From an uncultured bacterium (GTDB lineage Bacteria > Planctomycetota > UBA1135 > UBA2386), in the NCBI GenBank assembly GCA_937952215.1, contig CALFZH010000042.1:43840-107839 (forward strand): a stretch of DNA of 64,000 nucleotides. The letters run 5' to 3'. This document shows positions 1 through 43,909 of the stretch, one piece after another. The notes beneath the pieces were generated by a model that was not told the DNA's origin, searched no databases, and saw only the letters and a program-made list of their open reading frames with translations. The first letter of the stretch is position 1. Each line of letters opens with the position of its first letter. The translations under genes and the position numbers were made by a program.

Positions 1-2568
1 GTTGGCGATGTTGGCGATGTCGAAGACGCGGAAGCCGTTCGGCCCGTCGGCGACGAACAAGTACTCGCCGCGAACCTGCGCCGTGCGCGCCGCGGTCGCC
101 GAGTGCGAGTGTGTCTCCGTGAGCTGCTCGCCGTTCGCCACGTGCGCGGCGTGCTCGCGTGGATAGGTCGTGCGGTGGAAGTCGCTGCCGATGACCGGCT
201 GCGGTTCCCAGCCGTCGGTCACGCGCACGGCCGTCACCGAGTCGGTCGTGGCAAGATGCACGAACGAGCCGACGAAGTCGGTCGCGTGCGTGCCGAGGTT
301 GAAGCGCGACGCCAGCGTGGCGTTGTTGTCGTCGGCCTTGGACACGTGGCAGCTGGTGCACTGCTGACCGTGCTCGGAGCTGACCGTGTGCGGCACGTAG
401 GGCGAGAACGCCGTGCCGCTGTGGCCGGAGGCGGCGATCGTCGCCTGCTGGTGCGTGACGATGGCGCGGTTCTCGTTCTCGGCGGTGGCGATCGGCGCCG
501 ACGCGGAACGCACCGGCGAGATCCTGTTGCCCTTGACGGTGCCGTTGATGCCGAGCATCAGGCTGTCGGAGCGCAGGCCCTGCGAGTAGTAGCCGACGTC
601 GACCGTGGTCGGTTCGGGGAAGAAGTGGGTGAACTCCTTGCGGCGGTTGGTCTTGCCGGCCAGGTGGCAGCCCGAGCAGCTGATCGCCCACGACGTGTGG
701 CACGTGTAGCAGGTCATGCGCTGGTCGCAGTGCGCGTACTGTTCGGGCGACAGGCTCGCATCGCCGTAGCGTTCGCCGCCCTTCTGCAGCGTCTTCGCGA
801 TCGCCGCCTTCTCGTTGTAGGTCTTCGAGTTCGGATCGATGACGTCGGCGACCTGCGGAACCTGCCACTCCTTGTCCGGATCGAGCTTGCTGCGCTGCAT
901 CAGCCGGTCGCCCGCCTGCGGCGAGCGGCCGACGACTTCGGCGCCGGCGGCGTCGACCCAGCGGAACTGGTTGCCGCGCGCGGCGCGCGCGAGCTGCAGG
1001 TTGTTGCCGCCCGACGGGTTCGAGGTGACCAGCTTGGCCCGTTCGCCGACCGTGCCGTGGCAGTCGGTGCAGTAGATCTCGACCGGGTTGATCATCTCGC
1101 CGTACAGCTTGCCGTCGCCATGCACGTCCTGCTGCGTGTGGCAGTCGATGCAGTGCATGCCGGCGCTGAAGTGGTGGTCGGCGAGGTGCACGGCCTTCTG
1201 TTCCCAGTCGGGGTCGTCGAACGGCACCACCTTGCCGTCGCGGCCGATCAGCTGGCCTTCGAGGTCGCGCTTGTAGACCTTGCGGAACGACCAGCCCGAG
1301 CGGTGCTGCGTCGAGAACTTCAGGTGCTTGCTGTCGGCGTTGGCGATGGTGTGCGCCTGGTCGAGTTCCCTGCCGGCGAGCGGCCGGCCATCGGCGTGGT
1401 ACATCGACTTGCCGTCGGTTTCGCCGTCCCACCACATCAGGCCGGCGTAGTTGTCGACGGCGCCGCTACCCTGGTGGTTGTGGCAGGTGATGCACTGGCT
1501 GTTCGGGATGCGCGTCGTGAACTGGTGGTGGATCGGATGCCCGGGTTCGTCGCGCGGGATCGTCGGGTCGGGGTTGTCCGCCGCGGTCTTGCCGAGGAAG
1601 CCGTGGGCGACGAACTGGCCGGCCATCAGCGGATCGGCGTCGTTGGCGTAGACGACGTGGCAGCCCGTGCAGCCGCTCGAACGGAACTCGCCGCTGTAGT
1701 CGTTGGTGCCGAGGAACCACAGATACGGGTCGTTGAGCCGCGTCTTGTGGAGCACGAAGTGCGCGAAGTCGACCCGATTGCGCGTGCCCAGGCCGCGTTG
1801 CCCGGGACGTCCGCGCTCGGCCGCCCGGAAGATGTTGCCCGGCTGGCTCATGTTGTAGCGCGGCACCGGCAGCAGCGACGGCAGCACGCCGCGCGCCTTC
1901 TCTTCGGCGGTCGGCGCCGGCTCGGCGGTGACCGACGCCGACTCGCCGTTCGGCATGTAGAACTCGCCGAGGACGTAGTTCTTGTACGGCAGCACGCCGT
2001 TGTTGTAGGTGCCCGAGCCAGGCACCATCGCACTGTGCGCCATGATGCTCGACATCACGCGCTGCGTGATGTCCTGGTGGCAGTTGGCGGTGCCGCACGT
2101 CATCTGCGCGACGCGCAGGTCACCGGGGTTGATGAAGCGCACGAACTCGAGCTTCTCCTTGTTGAGGAGTGCATAGCTGTTCTCGGGATTGCGGCTGCCC
2201 TGCCACTCGTCGGGGAACGCCGGCGCCACGTGCGCCGCCTTCATCACCGCCAGGTAGTCGGCCGGGAACGGCCGTGTCACTGCCCCGCCGTCCCAGCGCG
2301 CGGTCGGGTCGCCGCCGTGGCAGTCGGCGCAGCCGATCGCGGGAACGTTGCGCGGATGCATGTTCGCGCTGTGGATGCCGGTGTGGCAGGACTGGCAGCC
2401 CGCGCTGGCGATGGCCTGGCGATCGCCGGAGGTGCGCAGCAAGTCGCTCGGGGGCTCCCAGCTGCCGAGGCCGGTCGAGGTGTCGCGCGCCGCCCATGTG
2501 GCGCAGCCGACGGTCGCCGCGAACACGGCGAGCAGAAGCAGGGGAATGCGCTGGCGAGAGAGGATCAT
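1..2568 (-). CDS. Multiheme c-type cytochrome, probable lipoprotein (10 heme-binding motifs visible); 3'-partial, runs off the window as an LVIVD-like beta-propeller repeat begins
   Basis: Absent from the ORF track because it is open-ended. Hand translation of the minus strand from ATG 2568-2566 (GAGG 7 nt upstream) gives MILSRQRIPLLLLAVFAATVGCATW..., a signal peptide with a Cys. Motifs seen: CQSCH, CADCH, CGTANCH (CX4CH), CTGCH, CITCH, CIDCH, CTDCH, CYTCH, CSGCH, CTSCH. The frame is open to position 1 and ends ...RGEYLFVADGPNGFRVFDIANIAN. Confidence 0.85.
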   Translation of the reverse strand, partial: MILSRQRIPLLLLAVFAATVGCATWAARDTSTGLGSWEPPSDLLRTSGDRQAIASAGCQSCHTGIHSANMHPRNVPAIGCADCHGGDPTARWDGGAVTRPFPADYLAVMKAAHVAPAFPDEWQGSRNPENSYALLNKEKLEFVRFINPGDLRVAQMTCGTANCHQDITQRVMSSIMAHSAMVPGSGTYNNGVLPYKNYVLGEFYMPNGESASVTAEPAPTAEEKARGVLPSLLPVPRYNMSQPGNIFRAAERGRPGQRGLGTRNRVDFAHFVLHKTRLNDPYLWFLGTNDYSGEFRSSGCTGCHVVYANDADPLMAGQFVAHGFLGKTAADNPDPTIPRDEPGHPIHHQFTTRIPNSQCITCHNHQGSGAVDNYAGLMWWDGETDGKSMYHADGRPLAGRELDQAHTIANADSKHLKFSTQHRSGWSFRKVYKRDLEGQLIGRDGKVVPFDDPDWEQKAVHLADHHFSAGMHCIDCHTQQDVHGDGKLYGEMINPVEIYCTDCHGTVGERAKLVTSNPSGGNNLQLARAARGNQFRWVDAAGAEVVGRSPQAGDRLMQRSKLDPDKEWQVPQVADVIDPNSKTYNEKAAIAKTLQKGGERYGDASLSPEQYAHCDQRMTCYTCHTSWAISCSGCHLAGKTNRRKEFTHFFPEPTTVDVGYYSQGLRSDSLMLGINGTVKGNRISPVRSASAPIATAENENRAIVTHQQATIAASGHSGTAFSPYVPHTVSSEHGQQCTSCHVSKADDNNATLASRFNLGTHATDFVGSFVHLATTDSVTAVRVTDGWEPQPVIGSDFHRTTYPREHAAHVANGEQLTETHSHSATAARTAQVRGEYLFVADGPNGFRVFDIANIAN

Positions 2569-2576
2569 GGCGCGCC

Positions 2577-4229
2577 TCAGAGAACGATGGTGGCGTTGAC
2601 GAAGAACCCGACGAGCAGGTCGTCGCTGACCAGCTGGTCGAGGCCGCCGGTCGGGACCAGGGCCTGCAGCACCGGCGTGATGACGACGTTGTCGACGCCG
2701 AAGGGTCGGTAGCGCGCACCGACGCTGAGGTCGATGCCGATGCCGCGTGACAGCGACTGCCCGAACGTCGCCTCGAGCACGGCCGTGTCCGCGAACTGCA
2801 GGTAGCTCGCGTTGCCGACCACGCTCCAGTAGTTCGACAGCTCGGCTTCGACACCTGCGTGCAGGATGGCGAGACCGGGATTGACCGAGTTGGGGCCGGC
2901 GGCGGCCTTGCCGCGCAGGTTCGGATAGAAGCTGTTGGCGTTCGAAATCAGCGTGCCATCGACGGCGATCGCCTGGCGGTGGAAGAAGCCGAGCTGGCCG
3001 CCAGCGAACTGCGGGTTGTCGAACACACTGTCGAAGCCGTTGCCGTCACCGTCGGTCGGATCGTCGTCGCCCGATGCGTACAGCGCGCTGAACACGTAGC
3101 GGCGCCAGCTGTCGGGGATGCCGACTTCGACGGCGGCGAGGTGCGCCGAGGTCGACACCGAGCGGCCGGCGAATGCGTTCTGCTCGTCGTCGCCGAACAT
3201 CAAGTAGAGAGCGTGCGCGAAGTCGACCTTGCCGAGGCGGCCGTCGCCGAGGAAGCCGAGATAGTAGGCGTCGATCGTCGCGCCCTGCGTGTCGTGCACC
3301 CACTGCGTGGTGAGTTGCACCTCGTAGCCCATGCTCAGCATGTCTTCGAGGAACACGTTGGCGGCGAAGAAGGTCTGGTCACGCGACTCGGTGCCGCGCG
3401 AGAGGTTGCTCTCGGGGTCCTTCTCGACGAGGTCGAAGAAGGCGAGTTGGTAGTCGATGCGGGACTCGCACAACGAGCCGAACAACTGCGCGCCGTCGTT
3501 CTGGTCGACGAAGATGAAGTTGCGGAAGTCGCTGGCGAACGCCTGGCGGCCGACGCGCAGCGAGGCGAAGTCGAAGTAGGGATCCAGTTCCCACAGCAGG
3601 GCCTCGGCGAACAGCTCCTGCATGGCGAAGTCGGTCTGCGTGACGCCGCCGCCGATGTCGTCGGCATCGCGCGTGTCGAAGGCGCCGGTCGCGCGCACGC
3701 GCCACGTCGGCGGGCGGAACACCGTGTCGCCGTGGAACAGCTCGAACGACAGGAAGTTGGTCGTGCGCTTCTCCAACGCGTCGGGTGCGTTCGCCTTCTC
3801 GCGCGACTCGAAGGTGTTGGTGCTGACGACGTCGGTGACGAAGAACAGGTGCTCGCCGGAGATCGGCCGGTCACCCTTCAGCGGGTTGACGTTGTAGACG
3901 TCGAGCAGGCCACCGCCGCGCAGGAGCGGGTACTCGCCCGTGCCGTCGGAGAAGAGCAGCGGATTCCATCCCCGCCGCCGGCCGTAGCGATCGAACGGCT
4001 CGAGATCGAGGTAGCGGCTCTGCACCGGCTGGTAGCGAACCCGCGGCGTCGCCCCGGGTTGCTGCGCGTCAGGTTGCGTGATCGTCTTCGGGGGCGTCGT
4101 CGGCGGCGGCACCCGCCGCGGACCTTCGACGGGGTCCTGCGCCGCGGCAGCGACAGTCAGCGCGGCGGCCGCGAGCAATTGCGGCACCCGAGCGAAGAAG
4201 AAGGCGTGCTGCCGACAGCGCGGCGACAC
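2577..4229 (-). CDS. Putative outer-membrane beta-barrel (porin-like) protein
   Basis: This is the 3' part of track ORF 2577..5105. Start reassigned to an in-frame GTG at 4229, giving MSPRCRQHAFFFARVPQLLAAAALTVAAAAQDP (signal peptide). The remainder has alternating amphipathic strands and is rich in aromatics, Gly, Asp and Asn (YEVQLTTQWVHD, AYYLGFLGDGRLG, SVGARYRPF). The upstream 290 codons of the track ORF are Arg/Pro/Ala junk. The stop lies 8 nt before the cytochrome start. Confidence 0.7.
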   Translation of the reverse strand: MSPRCRQHAFFFARVPQLLAAAALTVAAAAQDPVEGPRRVPPPTTPPKTITQPDAQQPGATPRVRYQPVQSRYLDLEPFDRYGRRRGWNPLLFSDGTGEYPLLRGGGLLDVYNVNPLKGDRPISGEHLFFVTDVVSTNTFESREKANAPDALEKRTTNFLSFELFHGDTVFRPPTWRVRATGAFDTRDADDIGGGVTQTDFAMQELFAEALLWELDPYFDFASLRVGRQAFASDFRNFIFVDQNDGAQLFGSLCESRIDYQLAFFDLVEKDPESNLSRGTESRDQTFFAANVFLEDMLSMGYEVQLTTQWVHDTQGATIDAYYLGFLGDGRLGKVDFAHALYLMFGDDEQNAFAGRSVSTSAHLAAVEVGIPDSWRRYVFSALYASGDDDPTDGDGNGFDSVFDNPQFAGGQLGFFHRQAIAVDGTLISNANSFYPNLRGKAAAGPNSVNPGLAILHAGVEAELSNYWSVVGNASYLQFADTAVLEATFGQSLSRGIGIDLSVGARYRPFGVDNVVITPVLQALVPTGGLDQLVSDDLLVGFFVNATIVL

Positions 4230-4396
4230 GAATCCGCGGTGTGGCGCGGGCGAGAGGTGGGCGAGCAAGAACAACCTCCGGGCACGAGAGCTGAGCGACG
4301 CGGCATGGTGCAGACGTGCTTGTCGCGGCGCAATGGGGGGGGCCGTAGTATCGTGACATCGCGCGGCGCCTCGCTCGCCGATCGCGAGCGCTGCCC

Positions 4397-6358
4397 ATGT
4401 TCGTTCGCCTGATCCTGATGTTGGCCTGTTGCGCGACAGGAGTCCTGTCGTGGCCAGCGGCAGCGCCGGGAGATCTCCTTGCGACCGGCGCGGAGTGGCC
4501 GCAGGAGCCGCGATCGGGGGGGGGTCTCGTGTTTCGGCACGGCTCGCATCTGGCGCCGGATTGGCAACAGACCCCGGCGGATCGCCAGTGGGAAACGCAC
4601 TGCAGCGTCTGCCACGAACGCGACGAGAATCGCGCGTCCGGCTTCGTCGACGCGGCGACGAAATGCGCGCAGTGTCACCACAACGATCCGGACAAGCGTG
4701 GCGGCGATCGTCGCCGCTTGGAGTTCGAAGGCGGTCGGCGACCGGGCGCGTTGGCGTTCGATCATGCGTCGCCGACCCACCGGCAGCGCGATTGCATCGA
4801 GTGCCACACGCCGAACGTCGGCCCGCGCGGTGACTTTCCGTATCCCGACGTGCTGTTCTCGCTGCCTGCCGACCTGCGCGCGTGCCAGTCGTGCCATCAG
4901 CATGGCGCGAAGGACCCTGCCGCCGGCAAGCAGACCCAGTTCGATCGGGCGGCCGGAGTCGGGGGCGCGCCGGCGGCGTGGGCGGCGGCGACGACGTGCG
5001 CGCATTGCCACGTCGCCGGGGCGCCGGTCGCGCGCGCTGCACATCAGCGGGCGACGCTGCGCCCGTTCCAGCACGCGTCGCACCTGCCCGCCGATCCGGC
5101 GGCACAGGCTGCCGCGTGCGCGACCTGCCATCAGGTGAATGCAGAGGGTCGCCTCGGCCTCGCCGATCGTGACCAGAAGGTGTGTGCGAAGTGCCACGCT
5201 GCTGCGGACGCCGCGACCACGACCGGCCTCGCCGCCGACCTGCAGGTCGAGCGCATGCCGAGCACGTTCACGCACAGCACCAAGGGGCACCAGCAGGCGT
5301 GCGACGTCTGCCACCCGCGGGGCCAACAGGGCGCCGAACCGATGGTGCAGCGGCTCTACAAGGACTGCACGACGAGCTGTCACTCGGACTGGCGCATTCC
5401 TCGCCACGGATCGTTCGGCTGTGACCAGTGCCACGCCACGACGCCGACGCTCGGACAGAAGGACGCCGGCGACATCGCGATCACGACCGTCGAACGCACC
5501 TTCGGGGCCGCGCGATTCCAGTTTCAGAGTCCGCAACACGTCGGCATCACGGCGGGCGCGGGCGGCACGCACCCGAACATGGCCGGGCGCGAGTGCCGCG
5601 AGTGCCATCGCAGCACGCCGGCCGCGCTGCAGCAGCGCACCGAGCCGCGCGCGTTCGACCATGCGTCCCATCTGCCGAAGGGACTTGCCGGCGTCACCAA
5701 GTCGGAGTGCACCGCCTGCCACGTGCACGTCGTCGAGACATCGTCGCCCGAGCTGCTTGCCCCGTTCCGCAGCGATTCCCTGCGCGAGCGGCGCACGTGC
5801 ACGTCGGAGTGCCATCGATGCGAAGCGATCGGCATCGAGGAGGTGCGCCGGGCCCTCCCGGTGCCGAAGTTCGACCACAAGCGGCACGAGCAGCACGAGT
5901 GCGTCGTCTGCCACGTGCGCGACGGGAAGATCACCTCCGGCCGCGACGCTCTGCTGCAAGGCGGTCTCGGCCTCGCGTGCAGTCAGTGCCACGGTCATCG
6001 TGACCCGGAGAAGGCCCGGATCACCGGCGGCTACGACGCGACGCCGCAGAGCCCTGCCTGCTCCAACTGCCACCTGCCGCGGGAAGCGCCGCAGTTCGGG
6101 CGCGCGGCAGAGCGTCAGCAGCGCGACGTGTTGCTCGCCGGCGCACTGCAGTTCCACGCCAAGGGCGGTGATTGTCGCTACTGCCACGAACTGAACGCAC
6201 CCGATCGGCGCAGTGGCACCCCGCTGCGGATCGTCGCCCATCGCACGCTGCACGAGGCGCACGTGGTGCCCGGGGCGGACGGCCGGCCAGGCAATCTGCC
6301 AACGGTTTCGGTGGCGCCGACGTGCCGTTCGTGCCACGCGTGGGAACCGCGTCGCTGA
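4397..6358 (+). CDS. Multiheme c-type cytochrome (18 heme-binding motifs)
   Basis: Track ORF of 653 aa. N-terminal signal MFVRLILMLACCATGVLSWPAAAP. There are 16 CXXCH motifs (CSVCH, CAQCH, CIECH, CQSCH, CAHCH, CATCH, CAKCH, CDVCH, CDQCH, CRECH, CTACH, CVVCH, CSQCH, CSNCH, CRYCH, CRSCH) plus 2 CX3CH motifs (CTTSCH, CTSECH). Confidence 0.9.
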   Translation: MFVRLILMLACCATGVLSWPAAAPGDLLATGAEWPQEPRSGGGLVFRHGSHLAPDWQQTPADRQWETHCSVCHERDENRASGFVDAATKCAQCHHNDPDKRGGDRRRLEFEGGRRPGALAFDHASPTHRQRDCIECHTPNVGPRGDFPYPDVLFSLPADLRACQSCHQHGAKDPAAGKQTQFDRAAGVGGAPAAWAAATTCAHCHVAGAPVARAAHQRATLRPFQHASHLPADPAAQAAACATCHQVNAEGRLGLADRDQKVCAKCHAAADAATTTGLAADLQVERMPSTFTHSTKGHQQACDVCHPRGQQGAEPMVQRLYKDCTTSCHSDWRIPRHGSFGCDQCHATTPTLGQKDAGDIAITTVERTFGAARFQFQSPQHVGITAGAGGTHPNMAGRECRECHRSTPAALQQRTEPRAFDHASHLPKGLAGVTKSECTACHVHVVETSSPELLAPFRSDSLRERRTCTSECHRCEAIGIEEVRRALPVPKFDHKRHEQHECVVCHVRDGKITSGRDALLQGGLGLACSQCHGHRDPEKARITGGYDATPQSPACSNCHLPREAPQFGRAAERQQRDVLLAGALQFHAKGGDCRYCHELNAPDRRSGTPLRIVAHRTLHEAHVVPGADGRPGNLPTVSVAPTCRSCHAWEPRR

Positions 6359-6445: not shown

Positions 6446-7027
6446 CTACGGGCGCGGTGCTTGGGCCTCGCGATGACCGTCGGTGGCGCTCAGCGACGGC
6501 TCCGGCGTGTATTCCCCGGCGCGGAACTTCGCGACCGTCTCGCGAACGGAGTCGCGGTGCTTCTGCTCGTACGGTCCGCACTCCTCGCTCCGCGGCGCGC
6601 GATACTCGGTCTTGGCGAGGCTGGCCTGCAGTTCCGCGAGCACGTCGACGTCCTCCTTGCGCACCGGCGTGAAGCCCACGGCGCTGGTCCAGGCGCCGAC
6701 CCGCGGTGTGACCCAGACGTAGTAGGTGTTGCCGGCCGTCAGCACGGCGGCGAAACCCTTGTAGCTCTGCGCCTTGGCGACGAAGAAGTGCTCCCCTGGC
6801 GCGCATCGATACTCGATCGTGCTGCCGTGTTCGGCGAAGCCCACCAGCTTGTCGCCGTCCCAGATCGGGTACTCGAGGCCGCCGGCGATGAAGCGGGATG
6901 GTCGACAGAACACGACCTTCGCCTCCTCGGGTCCGGGTGGTCCCATCGGCGGCACGGTCTGCATGTAGCTCGTGCACGAGCACATGAAGGGAAGCAGCCA
7001 CATCGCGCCGAGCTTCGGGATCCTCAT
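6446..7027 (-). CDS. Small lipoprotein, function unknown (DUF2846-like by memory)
   Basis: 3' part of track ORF 6446..7456. The internal ATG at 7027 gives MRIPKLGAMWLLPFMCSCTSYMQ, a signal with lipobox-like Cys. The upstream part of the track ORF is low-complexity junk. Confidence 0.7.
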   Translation of the reverse strand: MRIPKLGAMWLLPFMCSCTSYMQTVPPMGPPGPEEAKVVFCRPSRFIAGGLEYPIWDGDKLVGFAEHGSTIEYRCAPGEHFFVAKAQSYKGFAAVLTAGNTYYVWVTPRVGAWTSAVGFTPVRKEDVDVLAELQASLAKTEYRAPRSEECGPYEQKHRDSVRETVAKFRAGEYTPEPSLSATDGHREAQAPRP

Positions 7028-7476: not shown

Positions 7477-8124
7477 ATGAGCGACGCGAAGAAGACCACG
7501 CTCCAGCTGATTCTCTGGCCTTCGATCCTGACGCTGCTCGTCAACGTCGGGCGCGTGGTTGGCCAGAAGCAGGGCTGGATCACCACCGCGTCGGGTGGCG
7601 GGTTCGCCTGGTTCGGCATCACCTGGCTTGGCTTCCTGTTCGGCGCCTGGTTCGCCTACCGGCTGCGGCGCTCGGGTTCCACGCCGCGGCGGGCCTTCTG
7701 GTGGCCCTTGCTGTCGCTCCTGGCGGTCCTTGGCGTCGCCGTGTGGCAGTTCAGTGGCATCGATCGCGCGGACACCAGCGAGGCCGCGATGGAGCCGCTG
7801 CGGAACGCCGTGCTGTCCGTTACCGCAATCGCGTTGGCGATGGCGCTCGTGCAGTTCGCGGTCTGGCCACGATTGGCATGGACCCTGCTCGCCTATGCCG
7901 TGCCCGCCCGCCTGACGGTGCTCGCGTTGACGTGGCTGGCGAAGAGCCAGGGCTGGGACAGCCACTACACGAAGTTCGGGCCCGCCGGCATCGAGCGCGA
8001 AATGGCCGAGACGATGCAGAGCGCAGCCGTTGCCCAACTCGGCTTCTGGGTGCCGTTGACGATCATCGTCGGCACCTTGGTCGGCTGCTTGCTCGCGGGT
8101 CGTCCGGCAAAGAAACCGAGCTGA
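7477..8124 (+). CDS. Integral membrane protein, function unknown
   Basis: Track ORF of 215 aa with several hydrophobic helices (LILWPSILTLLVNV, FAWFGITWLGFLFGAWFAY, WWPLLSLLAVLGVAVW, VLSVTAIALAMALVQFAVW, LGFWVPLTIIVGTLVGCLL). High GC3. Confidence 0.8.
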   Translation: MSDAKKTTLQLILWPSILTLLVNVGRVVGQKQGWITTASGGGFAWFGITWLGFLFGAWFAYRLRRSGSTPRRAFWWPLLSLLAVLGVAVWQFSGIDRADTSEAAMEPLRNAVLSVTAIALAMALVQFAVWPRLAWTLLAYAVPARLTVLALTWLAKSQGWDSHYTKFGPAGIEREMAETMQSAAVAQLGFWVPLTIIVGTLVGCLLAGRPAKKPS

Positions 8125-8544: not shown

Positions 8545-10884
8545 ATGGGCCAGATCTCCATGCCGGTCGTCGTCGCGGTGGCAGTCGCCATCGCTGTCCC
8601 CCTGACCACCGTGTTGGCGCCAGCGCTGGTCGTCGCCACCGACGTGCAGTTACCGGGCACGCAACCTCTCGGCGTCAGCACCCTGCCGCTACCCTCGCAG
8701 TGCGACAACTGCCACAGCGGCTTCGACCCGATCAGCGAACCCGATCGGCCGTGGCGCGGCAGCATGATGGCGCATGCCGGACGCGATCCGGTGTTCTGGG
8801 CGACCATGGCGATTGCCGAGCAGGACTTCCCCGGGAGCGGCAACTTCTGCCTGCGTTGCCATACGCCGCGGGGGTGGCTGGAGGGAAGAGTCGACGCCGC
8901 CAGCAACGGCTCGCAACTGACCGCAGCAGATGCGAATGGCGTCGAATGCGGTATCTGCCATCAGCTGACGAACCCCGACCGCAGCGAGCACATCGGGCAG
9001 CAGGTGGCTCCGTACCTCGCTCATGACGGCGGCACACCGCCGACCGGGTTCTACGGCAGCGGCATGATGGTGCTGCTGGGCGGCAACACGCGCCTCGGAC
9101 CCTATGCACAGGCCAACGCTGCGCCGCATGCCTATGCGCAGTCTCACTTCCATCGCGACTCAGCTCTGTGCGGCACCTGCCATGATGTTTCGAACCCGGT
9201 GGTCGGCGACCTTGCCCACAATCACGGCTCGCTTGACCCACTCCCGGCAGGCTCGTTCAGCGGCGTCCCCGGCTCGCCGGTGACCACCAAGGCGGCGTTC
9301 CTCAACCAGCCGTACAGCTATGGCGTTGTCGAACGTACGTTCAGTGAGCACCAGTCCAGCGCCTTCGCGAATCTGCGCGTCCGCGACTACGACACGCTGC
9401 CCGACGAGCTGAAGCGCGGCATCCTCGCCAAGGCACGAGGCCAGGCACTGCTGGCCGGCACGCAAGGCGATCACGCCGACGGTGCGCCGCGACTGTTCTC
9501 CTGCCAGACCTGCCACATGCTGCCGGTCGTCGGCAAGGGTGCCAAACAGGCCCAAGCGCCGGTGCGGACCGACCTGGGCACACACGACCTGACGGGTGGC
9601 AACACCTGGGTTCCGGACCTGATCCAGTGGTTCGACCAGAACGGCTTGCTCCGACTCGGCGGCGGACTGTCCACGCTGGAGCGGCAGGCGCTCGATGCCG
9701 GCAAGCTGCGGGCCCGAGCGATGCTCAAGCTGGCTGCGGCTCTGGATATCGACGGCGACAACCTGCGGGTCGTCAACCTGACCGGCCACAAGCTGTTCAC
9801 CGGCTATCCCGAAGGCAGGCGGATGTGGCTTCGCACAACGTGGCTCGATCGCTTTGGGGGCTTGGTCCGTGTCGACGGTGCCTATGGTCCGCTGGCGGTG
9901 AACGTGCAGGGCACACCGCATGTGGTCGAGACCCTGCTCGATCCGGGTGATCCCAACCTGCGCCTCTACGAAGCCAAGCTCGGCATCACCCAGCAGTGGG
10001 CCAGCCAGCTGTTGGGTTTGGGGGTTCCGGGCTCCTTGCCGCTCGGCTACGACCGTACCACTGGCACAGTCCAGGGAACTCTCGGCGCGCTGGCCGCGGC
10101 ACCGCCGGGCACCACCGTGTCGACCTTCCACTTCGTGCTCAACAACACGGTGGTGCAGGACAACCGGATCCCGCCCTACGGCATGCGCTACGACGACGCG
10201 CGGCCGCGCAATGCCGTGCCGACGCCGATCGGCCAGTATGGCGCGCCCGGTCCCGGTGGGACCTACGCGCATTGGGACACCGTGGCCCTTGCACCGCCGC
10301 CCGGCGCGGTCCGTGCCGAGTTCGAACTGCTCTACCAGGCGAGCAGCTGGGAGTACATCCAGTTCCTGCTGCTGGCGAACACCCAGCAGGATCCGTTCCT
10401 CGCGATGACGGGGCAGAACCTGTTCAACGGCTGGCGCCAGACAGGCATGTCGGCCCCCGAGCGGATGGCGACGGCGAGTTGGTGCCGCCTGCCCGGCACC
10501 GGCGACGACTTGTATCTGCGCAGCGGTCGGGCCGGCGAGCCACTCGACGCCAACTGCGCCAAGACGATCGCCGGCGGACAGACCTTGCGACTCGAAATCG
10601 GCAGCTCCGGAGGCACCTTCGTCGGCGGGCTGGCCGCGTTTGCACTGCAGGTCTTCCCGCCATCCGGCCCGTGGCCGACGGAGCTGCTGCCGGGAGTCCA
10701 ACTCGACCGCGCCGACATCCTTGTCGCGGTGGCCGCCCTTCCAGCAGCCGGCGCCACGCTCGACATCCCGGTCCCGGCAGCCGTGAGCGACCTCATGGTG
10801 CGAGCACAGGGACTGGTGGTCTCGGAACTGACGCTCAGTGGCTTCCTCGGCACGTCACCGGCGCACGACTTCTTCGTGCCTTGA
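8545..10884 (+). CDS. Pentaheme c-type cytochrome domain protein with a large heme-free C-terminal region
   Basis: Track ORF of 779 aa. Signal or TM segment MGQISMPVVVAVAVAIAVPLTTVLAPALVVA. CDNCH, CLRCH, CGICH, CGTCH and CQTCH all fall within the first ~325 aa. The remaining ~450 aa have no CXXCH. Confidence 0.85.
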   Translation: MGQISMPVVVAVAVAIAVPLTTVLAPALVVATDVQLPGTQPLGVSTLPLPSQCDNCHSGFDPISEPDRPWRGSMMAHAGRDPVFWATMAIAEQDFPGSGNFCLRCHTPRGWLEGRVDAASNGSQLTAADANGVECGICHQLTNPDRSEHIGQQVAPYLAHDGGTPPTGFYGSGMMVLLGGNTRLGPYAQANAAPHAYAQSHFHRDSALCGTCHDVSNPVVGDLAHNHGSLDPLPAGSFSGVPGSPVTTKAAFLNQPYSYGVVERTFSEHQSSAFANLRVRDYDTLPDELKRGILAKARGQALLAGTQGDHADGAPRLFSCQTCHMLPVVGKGAKQAQAPVRTDLGTHDLTGGNTWVPDLIQWFDQNGLLRLGGGLSTLERQALDAGKLRARAMLKLAAALDIDGDNLRVVNLTGHKLFTGYPEGRRMWLRTTWLDRFGGLVRVDGAYGPLAVNVQGTPHVVETLLDPGDPNLRLYEAKLGITQQWASQLLGLGVPGSLPLGYDRTTGTVQGTLGALAAAPPGTTVSTFHFVLNNTVVQDNRIPPYGMRYDDARPRNAVPTPIGQYGAPGPGGTYAHWDTVALAPPPGAVRAEFELLYQASSWEYIQFLLLANTQQDPFLAMTGQNLFNGWRQTGMSAPERMATASWCRLPGTGDDLYLRSGRAGEPLDANCAKTIAGGQTLRLEIGSSGGTFVGGLAAFALQVFPPSGPWPTELLPGVQLDRADILVAVAALPAAGATLDIPVPAAVSDLMVRAQGLVVSELTLSGFLGTSPAHDFFVP

Positions 10885-11444: not shown

Positions 11445-11960
11445 TCAGCGCGCGCCGCCCGCCAGCGGTTCCTTCGCCGCGATGCCGGCGGTGTACTTCG
11501 CGTACAGAAACACGTTGGCCTTCAGGTTGCCGAGCTGCGCTCGGATCAGCGGCTCGACGTGGGCCCAATCGAGGCCACCGACGCCGGTCGCGAGCCGCGG
11601 CAATGCGACACTGCCGATCTTCTCGGCCTCGATCAGCTTCTTCAGTTCGTGCAGCGCGTGGTTGACGTGCTCGGTCTTGGCGCGGCCGGGGTGACCGCCG
11701 ACGCGGGCGGGCGGATCCTGCGTCATCAGGTTGGCGATGCGCACCTTCTGGCCCTTGCCGTCGACGCCCTGCCACAGCCACAACGAGCCCGGCTTCGGGT
11801 TGTTCTGGTGGCAGAAGTTCCGGAAGTCCTTGTGCATGCCCGGGAACCGCTCCCGCAGGGCGAGGGCGAGTCCGGACTTCCAATCGTCGTTGGGGGCAAC
11901 GCCGTGGGCGAGCAACTCGGCCTTGCTGAGGAGAAGGTCACCTTCGAGAGAGTGAATCAT
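11445..11960 (-). CDS. Macro domain protein (ADP-ribose binding/hydrolase family)
   Basis: Track ORF of 171 aa. Contains LLAHGVAPNDDWKSGLALALRERFP and GSVALPRLATGVGGLDW, which resemble the conserved macro-domain loops (xGxGlA and iPriGcGlgGl). Confidence 0.75.
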   Translation of the reverse strand: MIHSLEGDLLLSKAELLAHGVAPNDDWKSGLALALRERFPGMHKDFRNFCHQNNPKPGSLWLWQGVDGKGQKVRIANLMTQDPPARVGGHPGRAKTEHVNHALHELKKLIEAEKIGSVALPRLATGVGGLDWAHVEPLIRAQLGNLKANVFLYAKYTAGIAAKEPLAGGAR

Positions 11961-12032
11961 GGACCGCGCATCTTCGCATGCGCCGCACGTGGCAGCACTC
12001 TTACTGATGCGAAGGGCTGGGCCGGCTCAGAA

Positions 12033-13832
12033 CTACGGTACGCGCACCAGCAGCCGATGCCCTGGACCGACGCACGCGAAGAACCGGCCGTCCGGCGAGA
12101 AACCGTGGCAGTAGCGCGCGGGTCGCTCGTGCGCCTGGCCCAGGGTCCGCGCGGTGCCGCGCGTAACGGTGATGGCTCCGGCCACCGCACCGTGCGCCGT
12201 CCGGTCGCGGCGCTGCGACAACATCAGACCCACCGCGACCTGATCCCAAGGCAGCAACTCGCCGTCACCATCCCAGCGTTGCCGCCGCGCCTGCGGCTCG
12301 GCGACCAGAGCGTGCGGCGTCGCTTGCCAGGTGCCGGTTGGCGTACGCGTCCAGAGGGTCTCCGTTTGGTTCTGGTTCTCGCTTTCGGCCAGGAGGGGCG
12401 TCCAGCGCACCAGGCAGCGCTCGGGGCCGCGGCCGCCGAGCAACCAACCGGCGGGTGGCGTGGTGACGGCCGAGAACTGGTTGCCTGCCGCGTCGCGCCC
12501 ACGCTCCGAAGTCGCCCCACAGACCGTCTCCCGCTGCGGCGGCACGTTGCCGACGGGAAACGTCCAACGTTCGACCGCGGCGCCGAGGAAGCCCACGAAG
12601 ACCGATCGATCCCCAGCCGGTTCGAGCGCCACCGGCAGGCCGGGCTCACCATCGATCGCGTGGACCACCGCCGGTGCGATGGAGGCCCCTGGCACGGCGT
12701 CGCCGCACAGGAACACTTCGATCGCTTTGCCGCGGGCGACCAGCAATGTCGTCGCGTCGAGGAAGTGCAGCGCTGCGGTGCGATCGATCGCGCCCTGCAG
12801 GTCGGTCGCCAGCGACGGATCCTCGCGCTGCAGATCGCGCAGTTCGACCACACCGCGGGCGCCCGGCATCGCGACGAAGCGCCCGTCCGGCGAGAACGCC
12901 AGGGCGGTTCCCTCGTCGTCGTAGCCTAGGAACGCAGCTGCTCCGTGGGCTGCGAAGTCCGAATGTGGCCCACGCGCCGCGCCGAGCAGTTCGAGTTCGA
13001 TGCGCGGCCCCGGTTGCTCCGCCTGCTGTGCCGACAGTCGCACGATGCCGGCGGCGGCTGCCGTCGGCCCGTGCGGGACCGCGATCGCCGCGGAGCAGCG
13101 CACCAGCAGGGAGTCGTTCAAGTACAGATCGAAGGGCAGGTTGAACACCGGCCGGGGACCGGCGTCGCCAGCCGGCGCGGTCGCCGCCGCCCACGGCGTC
13201 GCCTGCGCGAAACCGGGCTCGAGCACGAGACTGCGCCGCCACAGCAAGCGGATGTCGAGTGGCACGCTGGCGACCTCGCCGAGCAGCCGCTTCAGGATCG
13301 GATCCGAACTGAGCAGGTTGCAGATCTCGAGCAGCTGCAGCGTCGCGACCGCCACCGGCAACGGATCGTTGCGCTGCTGTGCGAGCACACCGGCGGTGAA
13401 GCTCGACTCGAGGATCGCGTCGAAGGTGTCGATGCGCGAGCGCTGCAGTTCGGTGCCGGCGGCATCGGTCAGCAGCAGCCGCAGGCCCATCTTCCGCGTC
13501 GGGCGCGACGCCAGGCGTCGTTCCGGTTCCTTCTGCCGCACGAGGATCAGGTGCGTGTCCAGCCTGGGGTCGTCGCGGTCCACCTCGAGCTGCAACAGGC
13601 GCCGGGTCACGCGTTCGCCGTCGTGCAAGGTCACGCCGTAGAGCAGCCGGTCACCGTGCCGCAGGCCCCGTTCCCCGCCGAGGTCGAAGCCCGGCAGCAG
13701 CGACGTTGCGCCCGGAAAAGCCGTTGGTGGGCTCGTCGCCGCGAGCACCACCGCGGGCACGTCCTCCGGCCGCACTGCGCGGCAGGCGCCGAATGCCATC
13801 AACACCAGGAGCGACCAGCGCGTGCTGTGCAC
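12033..13832 (-). CDS. Large hypothetical exported protein with beta-propeller-like C-terminal half
   Basis: Track ORF 12033..13904. The in-frame GTG at 13832 gives VHSTRWSLLVLMAFGACRA (signal-like). The C-terminal half contains FSPDGRFVA and FSPDGRFFA motifs typical of WD40/TolB-type blades. The N-terminal half has no motif I recognise. Confidence 0.7.
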   Translation of the reverse strand: MHSTRWSLLVLMAFGACRAVRPEDVPAVVLAATSPPTAFPGATSLLPGFDLGGERGLRHGDRLLYGVTLHDGERVTRRLLQLEVDRDDPRLDTHLILVRQKEPERRLASRPTRKMGLRLLLTDAAGTELQRSRIDTFDAILESSFTAGVLAQQRNDPLPVAVATLQLLEICNLLSSDPILKRLLGEVASVPLDIRLLWRRSLVLEPGFAQATPWAAATAPAGDAGPRPVFNLPFDLYLNDSLLVRCSAAIAVPHGPTAAAAGIVRLSAQQAEQPGPRIELELLGAARGPHSDFAAHGAAAFLGYDDEGTALAFSPDGRFVAMPGARGVVELRDLQREDPSLATDLQGAIDRTAALHFLDATTLLVARGKAIEVFLCGDAVPGASIAPAVVHAIDGEPGLPVALEPAGDRSVFVGFLGAAVERWTFPVGNVPPQRETVCGATSERGRDAAGNQFSAVTTPPAGWLLGGRGPERCLVRWTPLLAESENQNQTETLWTRTPTGTWQATPHALVAEPQARRQRWDGDGELLPWDQVAVGLMLSQRRDRTAHGAVAGAITVTRGTARTLGQAHERPARYCHGFSPDGRFFACVGPGHRLLVRVP

Positions 13833-43797: not shown

Positions 43798-43909
43798 CTA
43801 CGCGCTGCCTTGGCTGGATGCTGCTGCCGGTCGGGGGGGAGGGCGCACGGTGCCGACCGGCACTTCGAGGCTGCGCGCGATGTCGATCGGACGCAGCCCA
43901 TGCACGCCC
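43798..43909 (-). pseudogene. Remnant of an ECF sigma factor (region 4.2 HTH only)
   Basis: The last codons of track ORF 43798..44430 read EGVHGLRPIDIARSLEVPVGTVRPPPRP... and then stop. GLxxxEIAxxLxVPxGTV is the region 4.2 helix-turn-helix signature. No region 2 lies upstream, where the lipoprotein gene ends at 43910. The homology breaks at a G7 tract. Confidence 0.55.
43833..43839. repeat. G7 (C7 on the coding strand) homopolymer tract at the break point of the sigma remnant
   Basis: The sequence tcggggggga was read directly at 43831-43840. Adding one G would join the remnant frame to the frame of the downstream 811-aa ORF (hand check). Confidence 0.8.

Follow-up and report, generated by a model that had tools for sequence, protein, structure and literature searches.

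A conserved gene pair encoding an AlgE-like outer-membrane barrel and a decaheme-propeller cytochrome, a candidate redox module of diverse bacteria

Introduction

Do bacteria possess outer-membrane electron conduits other than those described in a few metal-respiring or iron-oxidising model species? The question is raised by a locus at the left end of a 64,000-nucleotide stretch of DNA from an uncultured member of the Planctomycetota (UBA1135; UBA2386), comprising positions 43,840 to 107,839 of contig CALFZH010000042.1 in assembly GCA_937952215.1. This whole stretch, with a G+C content of about 69%, is referred to here as the window; the genome was assembled from bioreactor sludge (PRJNA254356). 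Its minus strand carries a gene for a predicted outer-membrane beta-barrel followed by a gene for a cytochrome with ten heme motifs that continues into a beta-propeller, and a gene for an 18-heme cytochrome is transcribed divergently. From the letters alone, this arrangement had been read as a porin-cytochrome-like trio and possibly a distinct type of conduit (hereafter the original prediction). The gene content proved to be as described, but ‘trio’ overstated the case, as only the barrel and the decaheme-propeller cytochrome are broadly co-conserved. In this pair, both the barrel family and the cytochrome architecture differ from those of the known conduits.

Results

The barrel and decaheme-propeller genes are inherited together

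Across 81 non-redundant loci, compared by tblastn and de novo clustering of open reading frames (ORFs), a barrel gene lies directly upstream of the cytochrome gene in 76. Three of the remaining loci lack upstream DNA, so that the pairing holds in 76 of 78 assessable cases. The estimated distance between the two genes has a median of 7 nt (74 loci), with many overlaps of -4 and -1. The reverse comparison gave the same result: for three of three distant barrel homologues (30-33% identity), one of them in a metagenome-assembled genome (MAG) of Nitrosomonas, an LVIVD cytochrome is encoded immediately downstream. Both genes of the pair are inherited together and very probably translated together. 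The original prediction would have been weakened by a barrel from an unrelated family that was not conserved alongside the cytochrome; the barrel does have an AlgE-like fold, as described below, and yet it stays with its partner.

The cytochrome family is large, with more than 6205 protein clusters, and its named members are all called ‘hypothetical protein’ or ‘LVIVD repeat-containing protein’. In a scan of one genome per species, carriers amounted to at least 591 GTDB species. Labels among the 80 best loci include Acidobacteriota, Planctomycetota, Alpha-, Beta- and Gammaproteobacteria, Bdellovibrionota, Binatia, Polyangiaceae and others. Cultured carriers are Spectribacter hydrogenoxidans W335, S. 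acetivorans P385 and a Fontimonas strain, and the MAGs include some assigned to Nitrosomonas, Methylobacter and Rhodoferax. Spectribacter, Nitrosomonas and Methylobacter are not known as metal respirers, and these three genera as well as Rhodoferax are aerobes or microaerophiles. W335 and P385 are type strains held in culture collections, and the marine genus Spectribacter is aerobic and chemoorganotrophic (PMC11165706).

Within the window, the barrel gene precedes the cytochrome gene on the minus strand with the 8-nt spacing first reported. The barrel start had been placed at a GTG codon at 4229, giving about 550 amino acids; gene callers instead select a TTG codon at 4268, six nucleotides after a GGAGG motif. 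This start lies 13 codons further upstream, and the divergent intergenic region, originally given as 167 bp, is therefore shortened to the length listed in Table 1. A promoter scan of this region found no sigma-70-type match. Downstream of the decaheme gene sits a convergent Dioxygenase_C gene, and the minus-strand operon thus consists of two genes.

Some loci vary in layout. At L006:2825-6367, the region upstream of the decaheme-propeller gene carries two genes for multiheme cytochromes (622 and 537 amino acids) on the opposite strand and, further out, a Ser/Thr kinase gene. In four loci of Acidobacteriota type (L011, L018, L026 and L062, at about 11900-12500), the decaheme-propeller gene is immediately followed by a short barrel-like ORF and then by genes of the iron-sulphur (FeS) and cyclic-nucleotide-binding type; this ORF may represent a second small barrel or a fragment.

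The cytochrome joins ten hemes to a seven-bladed propeller

The ten hemes originally counted are borne out by nine CxxCH motifs and one CxxxxCH motif in the translation of the window fragment (856 residues); by our estimate, about 0.001 CxxCH motifs would be expected by chance per 650 amino acids. The missing 3' end, whose recovery had been suggested, was obtained through P0001, a full-length protein of 1204 amino acids that is 100% identical to the window fragment and is encoded on contigs from bioreactor-sludge and other metagenomes. P0001 matches LVIVD (Pfam PF08309) with 89.2 bits against a cut-off of 20.2, over at least three stretches of repeats; with 17.7 bits, the window fragment by itself falls below the cut-off. 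In the AlphaFold2 (AF2) model of the mature protein (96 sequences; mean predicted local distance difference test, pLDDT, 88.7; predicted template modelling score 0.91), a mostly helical heme domain, extending from residue 1 to about 600, is followed by a beta-sandwich (613-702) and then by the propeller, which has seven predicted blades by our count from the strand list. Both the full-length sequence and the model uphold the LVIVD-like propeller that had been surmised from its first part.

In alignments of 20 and of 96 homologues, none of the ten heme motifs varies. The same alignments contain twelve further invariant or near-invariant histidines, enough for bis-His ligation of every heme, and the propeller has no conserved Cys or His in the family alignments. 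Furthermore, the conserved residues of the cytochrome reveal no catalytic heme or metal site. Since the conserved histidines suffice for bis-His ligation and the propeller lacks conserved metal ligands, we read the hemes as a transfer chain.

The N-terminus of the window protein, MILSRQRIPLLLLAVFAATVGC, fits the PROSITE lipobox pattern with the cysteine at residue 22 (signal and lipobox region MILSRQRIPLLLLAVFAATVG-C22). This feature is conserved as I/VGC-A/S-TW in a Planctomycetota clade of 58-100% identity, where it is held by P0001-P0016 except for one fragment, and is absent from most of the family, whose members carry ordinary signal peptides. The lipobox noticed earlier is thus present, but it characterises this clade and not the family. 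Over about 1200 amino acids, identity across phyla remains 42-49%.

What is this cytochrome related to? In Foldseek searches of the PDB only the propeller was matched (cytochrome cd1 nitrite reductase, AztD, BtuG2 and BamB; query-normalised template modelling (TM) scores 0.15-0.21). A profile search of the PDB returned weak local matches to a diheme segment of TvNiR and to the YncE/BtuG2 propeller, and single-sequence PDB searches with the barrel, decaheme and 18-heme proteins gave nothing significant. Among curated families, the heme domain significantly matches ExtM alone (NCBIfam NF040943; E 4e-24; 82-85 bits against a cut-off of 800); the matches of ExtN and ExtO are weak. The MtrC/OmcA pentaheme model (PF22113) did not match the decaheme-propeller protein at E values up to 0.1, and exhaustive phmmer searches with the heme domain recovered the same family and many fragments, with no interpretable relative lacking the propeller. 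The fusion had been called unusual. Indeed, it is real and uncharacterised: homologues bear the uninformative names given above, and full-text literature searches (LVIVD, propeller, alginate-export or FHA combined with multiheme or decaheme) returned no description of the family. A 2026 preprint on peat describing four gene clusters of Acidobacteriota and Verrucomicrobiota mentions neither propeller nor barrel nor FHA domain.

On one contig of acidobacterial type (L088:11125-14872), the cytochrome is called as two genes, of 998 amino acids and of 247 amino acids containing the LVIVD part, which could reflect a true split of the gene as well as a frameshift or a fault in the assembly.

The barrel resembles AlgE and OprD-type channels

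The AF2 model of the barrel (alignment of 88 sequences) has a pLDDT of 84.7. We count about 18 predicted transmembrane strands from the DSSP list; a short nineteenth strand (131-137) is probably outside the barrel. Foldseek placed AlgE first among PDB structures (E 1.6e-15; target-normalised TM scores 0.63-0.70), followed by the 18-strand OprD/Occ channels. MtrB does not appear among the top 50 structural matches, which are AlgE, Occ/OprD channels and general porins. The barrel had been described as not obviously MtrB-like, and the profile searches proposed at the time agree: the MtrB/PioB models of Pfam and NCBIfam (PF11854 and TIGR03509) did not match at E values up to 0.1, whereas the alginate-export model (Alginate_exp, PF13372) gave a borderline score of 20.0 bits (E 3e-4), under its cut-off of 25.2. 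Precomputed PF13372 matches exist for a few homologues (P0136, P0141 and P0234). Curated NCBIfam porin models gave no match at E values up to 0.1, and a profile search of the PDB with the barrel gave none.

Two regions set the family apart. An N-terminal extension of about 100-130 residues, modelled with low confidence in the monomer (pLDDT about 48-75), contains the family consensus DPYNxNxLKGDRPI and the nearly invariant residues R85, Y125, N128, K131, G132, D133 and P135; it is a candidate periplasmic docking segment for the cytochrome. Between strands 13 and 14 lies a 67-residue insert (L7, residues 399-465) that is well conserved and modelled with high pLDDT. Counting strands back from the C-terminus, this insert would be an extracellular loop, and it probably folds into the pore. 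In OprD-type channels, long loops of this kind fold inward. Its net charge is -5 (family median -3). A crude count of lumen-facing charges, in which the lumen phase of each strand was assigned by hydrophobicity, gives 11 K/R against 21 D/E. Together, the acidic lumen estimate and the charge of the insert weakly favour cations or neutral species over oxyanions.

With about 18 strands and a long conserved loop, the barrel is unlikely to sheath a cytochrome as MtrB does MtrA. It is probably a pore and not an MtrB-type sheath, and as modelled probably too narrow to hold a cytochrome.

We also considered the barrel as a dedicated translocon for the cytochrome and rejected this idea, as a folded holo-cytochrome of 130 kDa should not be able to pass a barrel of about 18 strands.

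The 18-heme cytochrome belongs to one Planctomycetota subclade

The divergently encoded cytochrome contains, as predicted, 18 heme motifs (16 CxxCH and two CxxxCH), and its homologue at L085 likewise has two CxxxCH motifs. It is a secreted, heme-dense, wire-type protein that is not a lipoprotein, and it matches both PF22113, the MtrC/MtrF-like pentaheme model (53.2 bits against 30), and Cytochrome_C7 (58 bits) above their cut-offs. Only six proteins of this family were detected. Homologues are encoded divergently from the pair in three Planctomycetota loci (L005, L085 and L086), with one more weak match in L045, and the gene is found only in a small subclade of this phylum, which speaks against a general third component. 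Compared with one common MAG, identity is 44% for the 18-heme cytochrome, 71% for the decaheme cytochrome and 64% for the barrel; judged from these sequences, the 18-heme protein diverges faster than its neighbours.

The L086 locus is informative about its possible role. There, the 18-heme homologue, which has a weak match to the DmsE/MtrA family, lies in one operon with genes for a transmembrane protein, a cyclic-nucleotide-binding/Fer4 protein and an FHA-cytochrome, divergent from the pair. This operon ties the third gene of the window to the same system as the accessory genes described in the next section. The 18-heme cytochrome occupies the position held elsewhere by an HbpS-like lipoprotein, and the L086 arrangement suggests that the wire replaces this lipoprotein as periplasmic relay.

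In most other lineages the pair ends a longer operon

In about 25 loci of proteobacterial, bdellovibrionotal and acidobacterial type, the pair terminates a collinear operon. The order is a flavoprotein with cyclic-nucleotide-binding and FeS domains, a protein with five transmembrane helices, an FHA-decaheme protein, an HbpS-like lipoprotein, the barrel and the cytochrome, with a c554-like cytochrome as the last product in some loci. Examples of the accessory genes, which may lie upstream or downstream of the pair, are found at L073:3-6157, L089:2106-9000 and L012:11676-17888. The accessory operon is apparently uncharacterised.

In its cytoplasmic protein, a Pyr_redox flavoprotein domain is combined with a 2x[4Fe-4S] ferredoxin domain and with cyclic-nucleotide-binding domains, of which there are two or three. 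Acidobacteria have HoxU/NuoG-like FeS domains in place of the flavoprotein part, accompanied by a separate NuoF-like FMN protein. Thus, NAD(P)H modules of two kinds that are not homologous (Pyr_redox in Proteobacteria; NuoF with HoxU/NuoG-like domains in Acidobacteria) are each joined to the same cyclic-nucleotide-binding ferredoxin part. The membrane protein (about 270-340 amino acids) has two conserved pairs of histidines with a 14-residue spacing on its transmembrane helices, which we take to be the classic diheme-b pattern. The FHA protein combines a cytoplasmic FHA domain with ten CxxCH motifs, and the HbpS-like lipoprotein (about 620 amino acids) contains three HbpS-like domains. In the acidobacterial loci, genes for CHASE2 adenylate cyclases and Ser/Thr kinases often lie nearby, and the regulatory domains in the operon itself suggest tight control.

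A 2026 preprint on the iron oxidiser Ferrigenium describes an FHA-nonaheme cytochrome, a transmembrane protein and a [4Fe-4S] protein, calls this set unprecedented and proposes an inward role for it. We set this trio beside the operon families by its description and not by sequence.

Features and neighbouring genes of the window

Table 1. Coordinates of the features at the left end of the window
Feature	Position	Strand	Basis or remark
Decaheme cytochrome-propeller, N-terminal 856 of 1204 amino acids, truncated at the window edge	1..2568	-	Heme domain, beta-sandwich and first propeller blade
Signal peptide with lipobox (…AATVG-C22) of the cytochrome	2503..2568	-	Fits PROSITE lipobox pattern
Predicted beta-sandwich domain of the cytochrome (mature residues 613-702), between heme motifs 9 and 10	400..669	-	DSSP on AF2 model
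Start of the LVIVD propeller, remainder outside the window	1..114	-	LVIVD match at residues 828-855
8-nt spacer between barrel stop codon and cytochrome ATG	2569..2576	-	Sequence
Predicted outer-membrane beta-barrel, 563 amino acids, about 18 strands, AlgE/OprD-like fold	2577..4268	-	AF2, Foldseek
Acidic conserved insert, barrel residues 399-465 (between strands 13 and 14)	2874..3074	-	Alignment; high AF2 pLDDT
Conserved N-terminal extension of the barrel, residues about 78-140, putatively periplasmic	3849..4037	-	Alignment; low AF2 pLDDT
Divergent intergenic region, 128 bp, with barrel GGAGG at 4275-4279	4269..4396	.	Sequence
18-heme cytochrome, 653 amino acids, about 36 amino acids per heme	4397..6358	+	Motif count, Pfam

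Beyond the 18-heme gene, the window encodes an ORF of 172 amino acids (6446-6964, minus strand) with a lipobox-like N-terminus (…FMCSC) and no family match, located before the gene of a multi-pass membrane protein of 215 amino acids (7477-8124, plus strand). The latter has only weak Pfam matches and no similarity to the five-helix diheme-b-like family. It is followed by a secreted protein of 779 amino acids (8545-10884, plus strand) with five CxxCH motifs within its first 325 residues and a long C-terminal region, which is the sole further c-type cytochrome in the window and has no Pfam match above cut-off and no PDB match. We rejected this 5-heme protein as a fourth component, as it is missing from the locus of the closest relative (L005).

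In two Planctomycetota loci, secreted Dioxygenase_C and CarboxypepD_reg proteins recur near the pair (L001:13751-23600, past the left edge of the window, and L086:19235-23822), and at L085 and L086 the pair is flanked by genes for an extracytoplasmic function (ECF) sigma factor and a Ser/Thr kinase. These neighbours may be coincidental or reflect clade-specific regulation.

Discussion

A proposed two-protein outer-membrane module

Our tentative interpretation, to which we give somewhat less than an even chance, is that two proteins, the barrel and the decaheme-propeller cytochrome, make up an obligate redox module of the outer membrane, at the distal end of an electron path across the envelope. 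We infer complex formation, topology, electron direction and the role of the pore, and the word ‘conduit’ is used in the same spirit. The ten hemes, possibly all bis-His, would act as an electron-transfer chain and not as a catalytic site. The seven-bladed propeller, the N-terminal extension of the barrel, or both, would hold the cytochrome at the barrel mouth; the weak profile match to YncE/BtuG2 is of interest here, as BtuG2 is a surface lipoprotein of the YncE family. The AlgE/OprD-like pore of about 18 strands, with its acidic lining, would sheath no heme wire. Instead, it might admit a small external redox partner to the docked hemes, such as a metal cation or chelate, a small shuttle or an oxygen species, and in its combination of pore and docked cytochrome the pair would work as a ‘split Cyc2’. 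In the window organism, the cytochrome is a predicted lipoprotein, which the divergently encoded periplasmic 18-heme wire would either supply with electrons or relieve of them. In most other lineages, electrons would likely flow outward, from NAD(P)H in the cytoplasm to an acceptor outside the cell, with cyclic nucleotides and phospho-threonine exerting control. This direction in the complete systems is suggested by the two unrelated NAD(P)H modules joined to the same downstream parts and by the membrane potential, which favours outward flow.

Several observations weigh against this interpretation. Two loci, L006 and L080, encode the cytochrome without an adjacent barrel. None of the NAD(P)H, transmembrane, FHA and other accessory genes was detected by tblastn in the 64-kb window, and the link between these genes and the window organism would thus come from its relatives. 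Foldseek gave no known fold for the heme domain, the list being dominated by propeller matches. Docking, and the membrane face involved, are guesses, and the lumen charge is a crude estimate whose strand phase was set by hydrophobicity. Finally, predictions for the porin-cytochrome barrels of Geobacter give about 18-22 strands, so small size alone is no bar to a sheath.

Could the locus be a sheath conduit of the Mtr/Pcc type after all? In that case the 18-heme protein or some segment of the decaheme protein would be threaded through the barrel, and the lipoprotein decaheme-propeller would sit on the surface like MtrC, where it would reduce or oxidise minerals or electrodes on contact. The division of labour would be that of MtrCAB: a heme-dense wire (about 36 amino acids per heme) matching the MtrC/MtrF pentaheme model, with a homologue at L086 that weakly matches the DmsE/MtrA family, a heme-sparse lipoprotein cytochrome with beta domains, and a barrel tightly coupled to the cytochrome gene and small, as the Geobacter porins are also predicted to be. 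We nevertheless consider this unlikely, given about 18 strands against 26 in MtrB and a conserved 67-residue loop that likely folds into the lumen. The universal partner of the barrel is a large globular cytochrome of 130 kDa and not a wire, the 18-heme protein is limited to one clade, the lipobox is missing in most family members, and cultured hosts include aerobic chemoorganotrophs. Inward flow appears doubtful to much the same degree. Here, the pore would admit Fe(II), Mn(II) or another reductant, and the docked cytochrome would oxidise it and pass the electrons through periplasmic cytochromes to the respiratory chain, as a lithotrophic or detoxifying oxidase like Cyc2 or MtoAB. An acidic pore lining, as crudely estimated, would suit cations, and the hosts Spectribacter and the MAGs assigned to Nitrosomonas, Methylobacter and Rhodoferax are aerobes or microaerophiles. 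The inward role proposed in the Ferrigenium preprint points the same way, but the likeness is one of description and not of sequence. In other lineages, however, the cytoplasmic partner is an NAD(P)H-type flavoprotein/FeS module reached through the diheme-b-like protein, and by established bioenergetics the inward transfer of electrons from Fe(II) or Mn(II) to NAD(P)+ runs uphill and against the membrane potential.

Alternatively, the cytochrome might be a periplasmic reductase acting on a soluble oxyanion or metalloid, with the barrel as a porin specific to its substrate. Geobacter would offer a parallel in ExtI and the Ext cytochromes, which are implicated in the reduction of selenite and tellurite. 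The porin-like ExtI is encoded with ExtM and is needed for selenite and tellurite reduction (PMC5877670), ExtM is the only significant curated match of our cytochrome (E 4e-24, 85 bits, with ExtN and ExtO weak), and the plain signal peptides of most members fit a periplasmic location. This relationship is distant, however, as the ExtM score is a tenth of the cut-off (85 against 800), and the barrel is unmatched by curated NCBIfam porin models at E values up to 0.1. A net-negative lumen, if the estimate is right, disfavours anions, and the conserved residues reveal no catalytic heme or metal site; we regard this explanation as improbable. That the two genes are neighbours without a shared function, the barrel exporting a polysaccharide like AlgE and the cytochrome acting independently, might be suggested by AlgE as the best structural match and by the weak Alginate_exp match. 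Synteny effectively excludes this reading, with adjacent and overlapping or nearly overlapping genes in 76 of 78 assessable loci across many phyla, and we think it very improbable indeed. Gene calls and Pfam scans of the loci examined revealed no alginate or polysaccharide synthesis genes, and the lumen estimate is negative, as opposed to the electropositive pore of AlgE.

A regulated route from NAD(P)H to the outside?

Returning to the two-protein redox module, a more ambitious version of it, which we hold to be a long shot, would make the pair the outer-membrane terminus of a quinone-bypassing electron-export machine. Electrons would pass from NAD(P)H to the flavoprotein/FeS protein, the diheme-b protein, the FHA-decaheme protein, a relay (HbpS-like or 18-heme) and the decaheme-propeller cytochrome on its AlgE-like pore, and the machine would be switched by cyclic nucleotides and Ser/Thr phosphorylation, like a regulated NADPH oxidase. 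Widespread NADH-stimulated production of extracellular superoxide, or reduction of metals, has been reported in aerobic heterotrophs, and to our knowledge the enzymes responsible are largely unidentified. Such a machine could explain either activity. We see a modest chance that the complete system represents a categorically new kind of machine for exporting electrons.

Should the pair prove to be a conduit, the exchange of electrons with the outside would be wider and mechanistically more varied than marker-gene surveys can at present detect. The hosts are unexpected, with at least 591 species that include soil Acidobacteriota, Planctomycetota, a Nitrosomonas MAG, a Methylobacter MAG and cultured marine aerobes. 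The link to NAD(P)H/FeS/cyclic-nucleotide-binding, diheme-b-like and FHA-cytochrome proteins suggests a regulated path by which electrons from cytoplasmic NAD(P)H could leave the cell without passing through quinones, which would be new. On a practical matter, the existence of cultured carriers makes the pair amenable to testing.

Comparison with known systems

As in MtrCAB of Shewanella, MtoAB/PioAB and the Pcc and Ext systems of Geobacter, a barrel is encoded here beside multiheme c-type cytochromes. The window clade also shares with porin-cytochrome conduits a lipoprotein cytochrome and a heme-dense periplasmic cytochrome, and likely trans-envelope electron transfer. However, MtrB and PioB have 26 strands, whereas this barrel is AlgE/OprD-like with about 18 predicted strands, and its conserved partner is not an MtrA-type wire but a 130-kDa protein combining ten hemes, a beta-sandwich and a seven-bladed propeller. 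In place of the quinol dehydrogenase input of porin-cytochrome conduits, other lineages apparently use the NAD(P)H flavoprotein, FeS and diheme-b-like proteins, and unlike known conduits of this kind the cultured hosts include aerobes.

Cyc2 of iron oxidisers likewise combines a small barrel with a cytochrome, and its substrate has been proposed to gain access to the heme by way of the pore. Cyc2 is, however, one polypeptide with one heme and a 16-strand barrel, whereas the present system consists of two proteins with ten hemes and a propeller, and no sequence relation between them was detected. AlgE and the OprD/Occ channels (PDB 3RBH, 4AFK, 2Y0L and others) have the same 18 strands and long loops as the barrel model; identity is 12-13%, and the N-terminal extension and the acidic 67-residue insert are extra features of our family. 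The AlgE pore is electropositive, in contrast to the net-negative lumen estimate here, and unlike AlgE the barrel is paired with a cytochrome, with no polysaccharide synthesis genes in the loci examined.

Among propeller proteins, a c-heme domain and a propeller are likewise united in cytochrome cd1 nitrite reductase. The cd1 propeller has eight blades; ours is counted at seven and has no conserved d1-heme or metal ligands. BtuG2 of the YncE family is a surface-exposed propeller lipoprotein, and BtuG2/YncE, AztD and BamB match the propeller region only. NHL-repeat propeller proteins encoded with outer-membrane multiheme cytochromes have been proposed as complex stabilisers (Desulfovibrio ferrophilus DFE_0448-0465 and UetH/I of ‘Ca. 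Tenderia’); unlike these separate proteins, the LVIVD propeller is fused to its cytochrome, and cluster content differs. ExtM (GSU2935, from the Geobacter cluster extHIJKLMNOPQS) is also clustered with a porin-like protein, ExtI; it has 12 hemes in about 600 amino acids, and the Ext cluster uses a Rieske/cytochrome b module (PMC5877670). Overall, the logic of barrel plus multiheme cytochrome is that of a porin-cytochrome system, and the differences lie in the barrel family, the fusion, the range of hosts and an input that is apparently linked to NAD(P)H and regulated through cyclic-nucleotide-binding and FHA domains.

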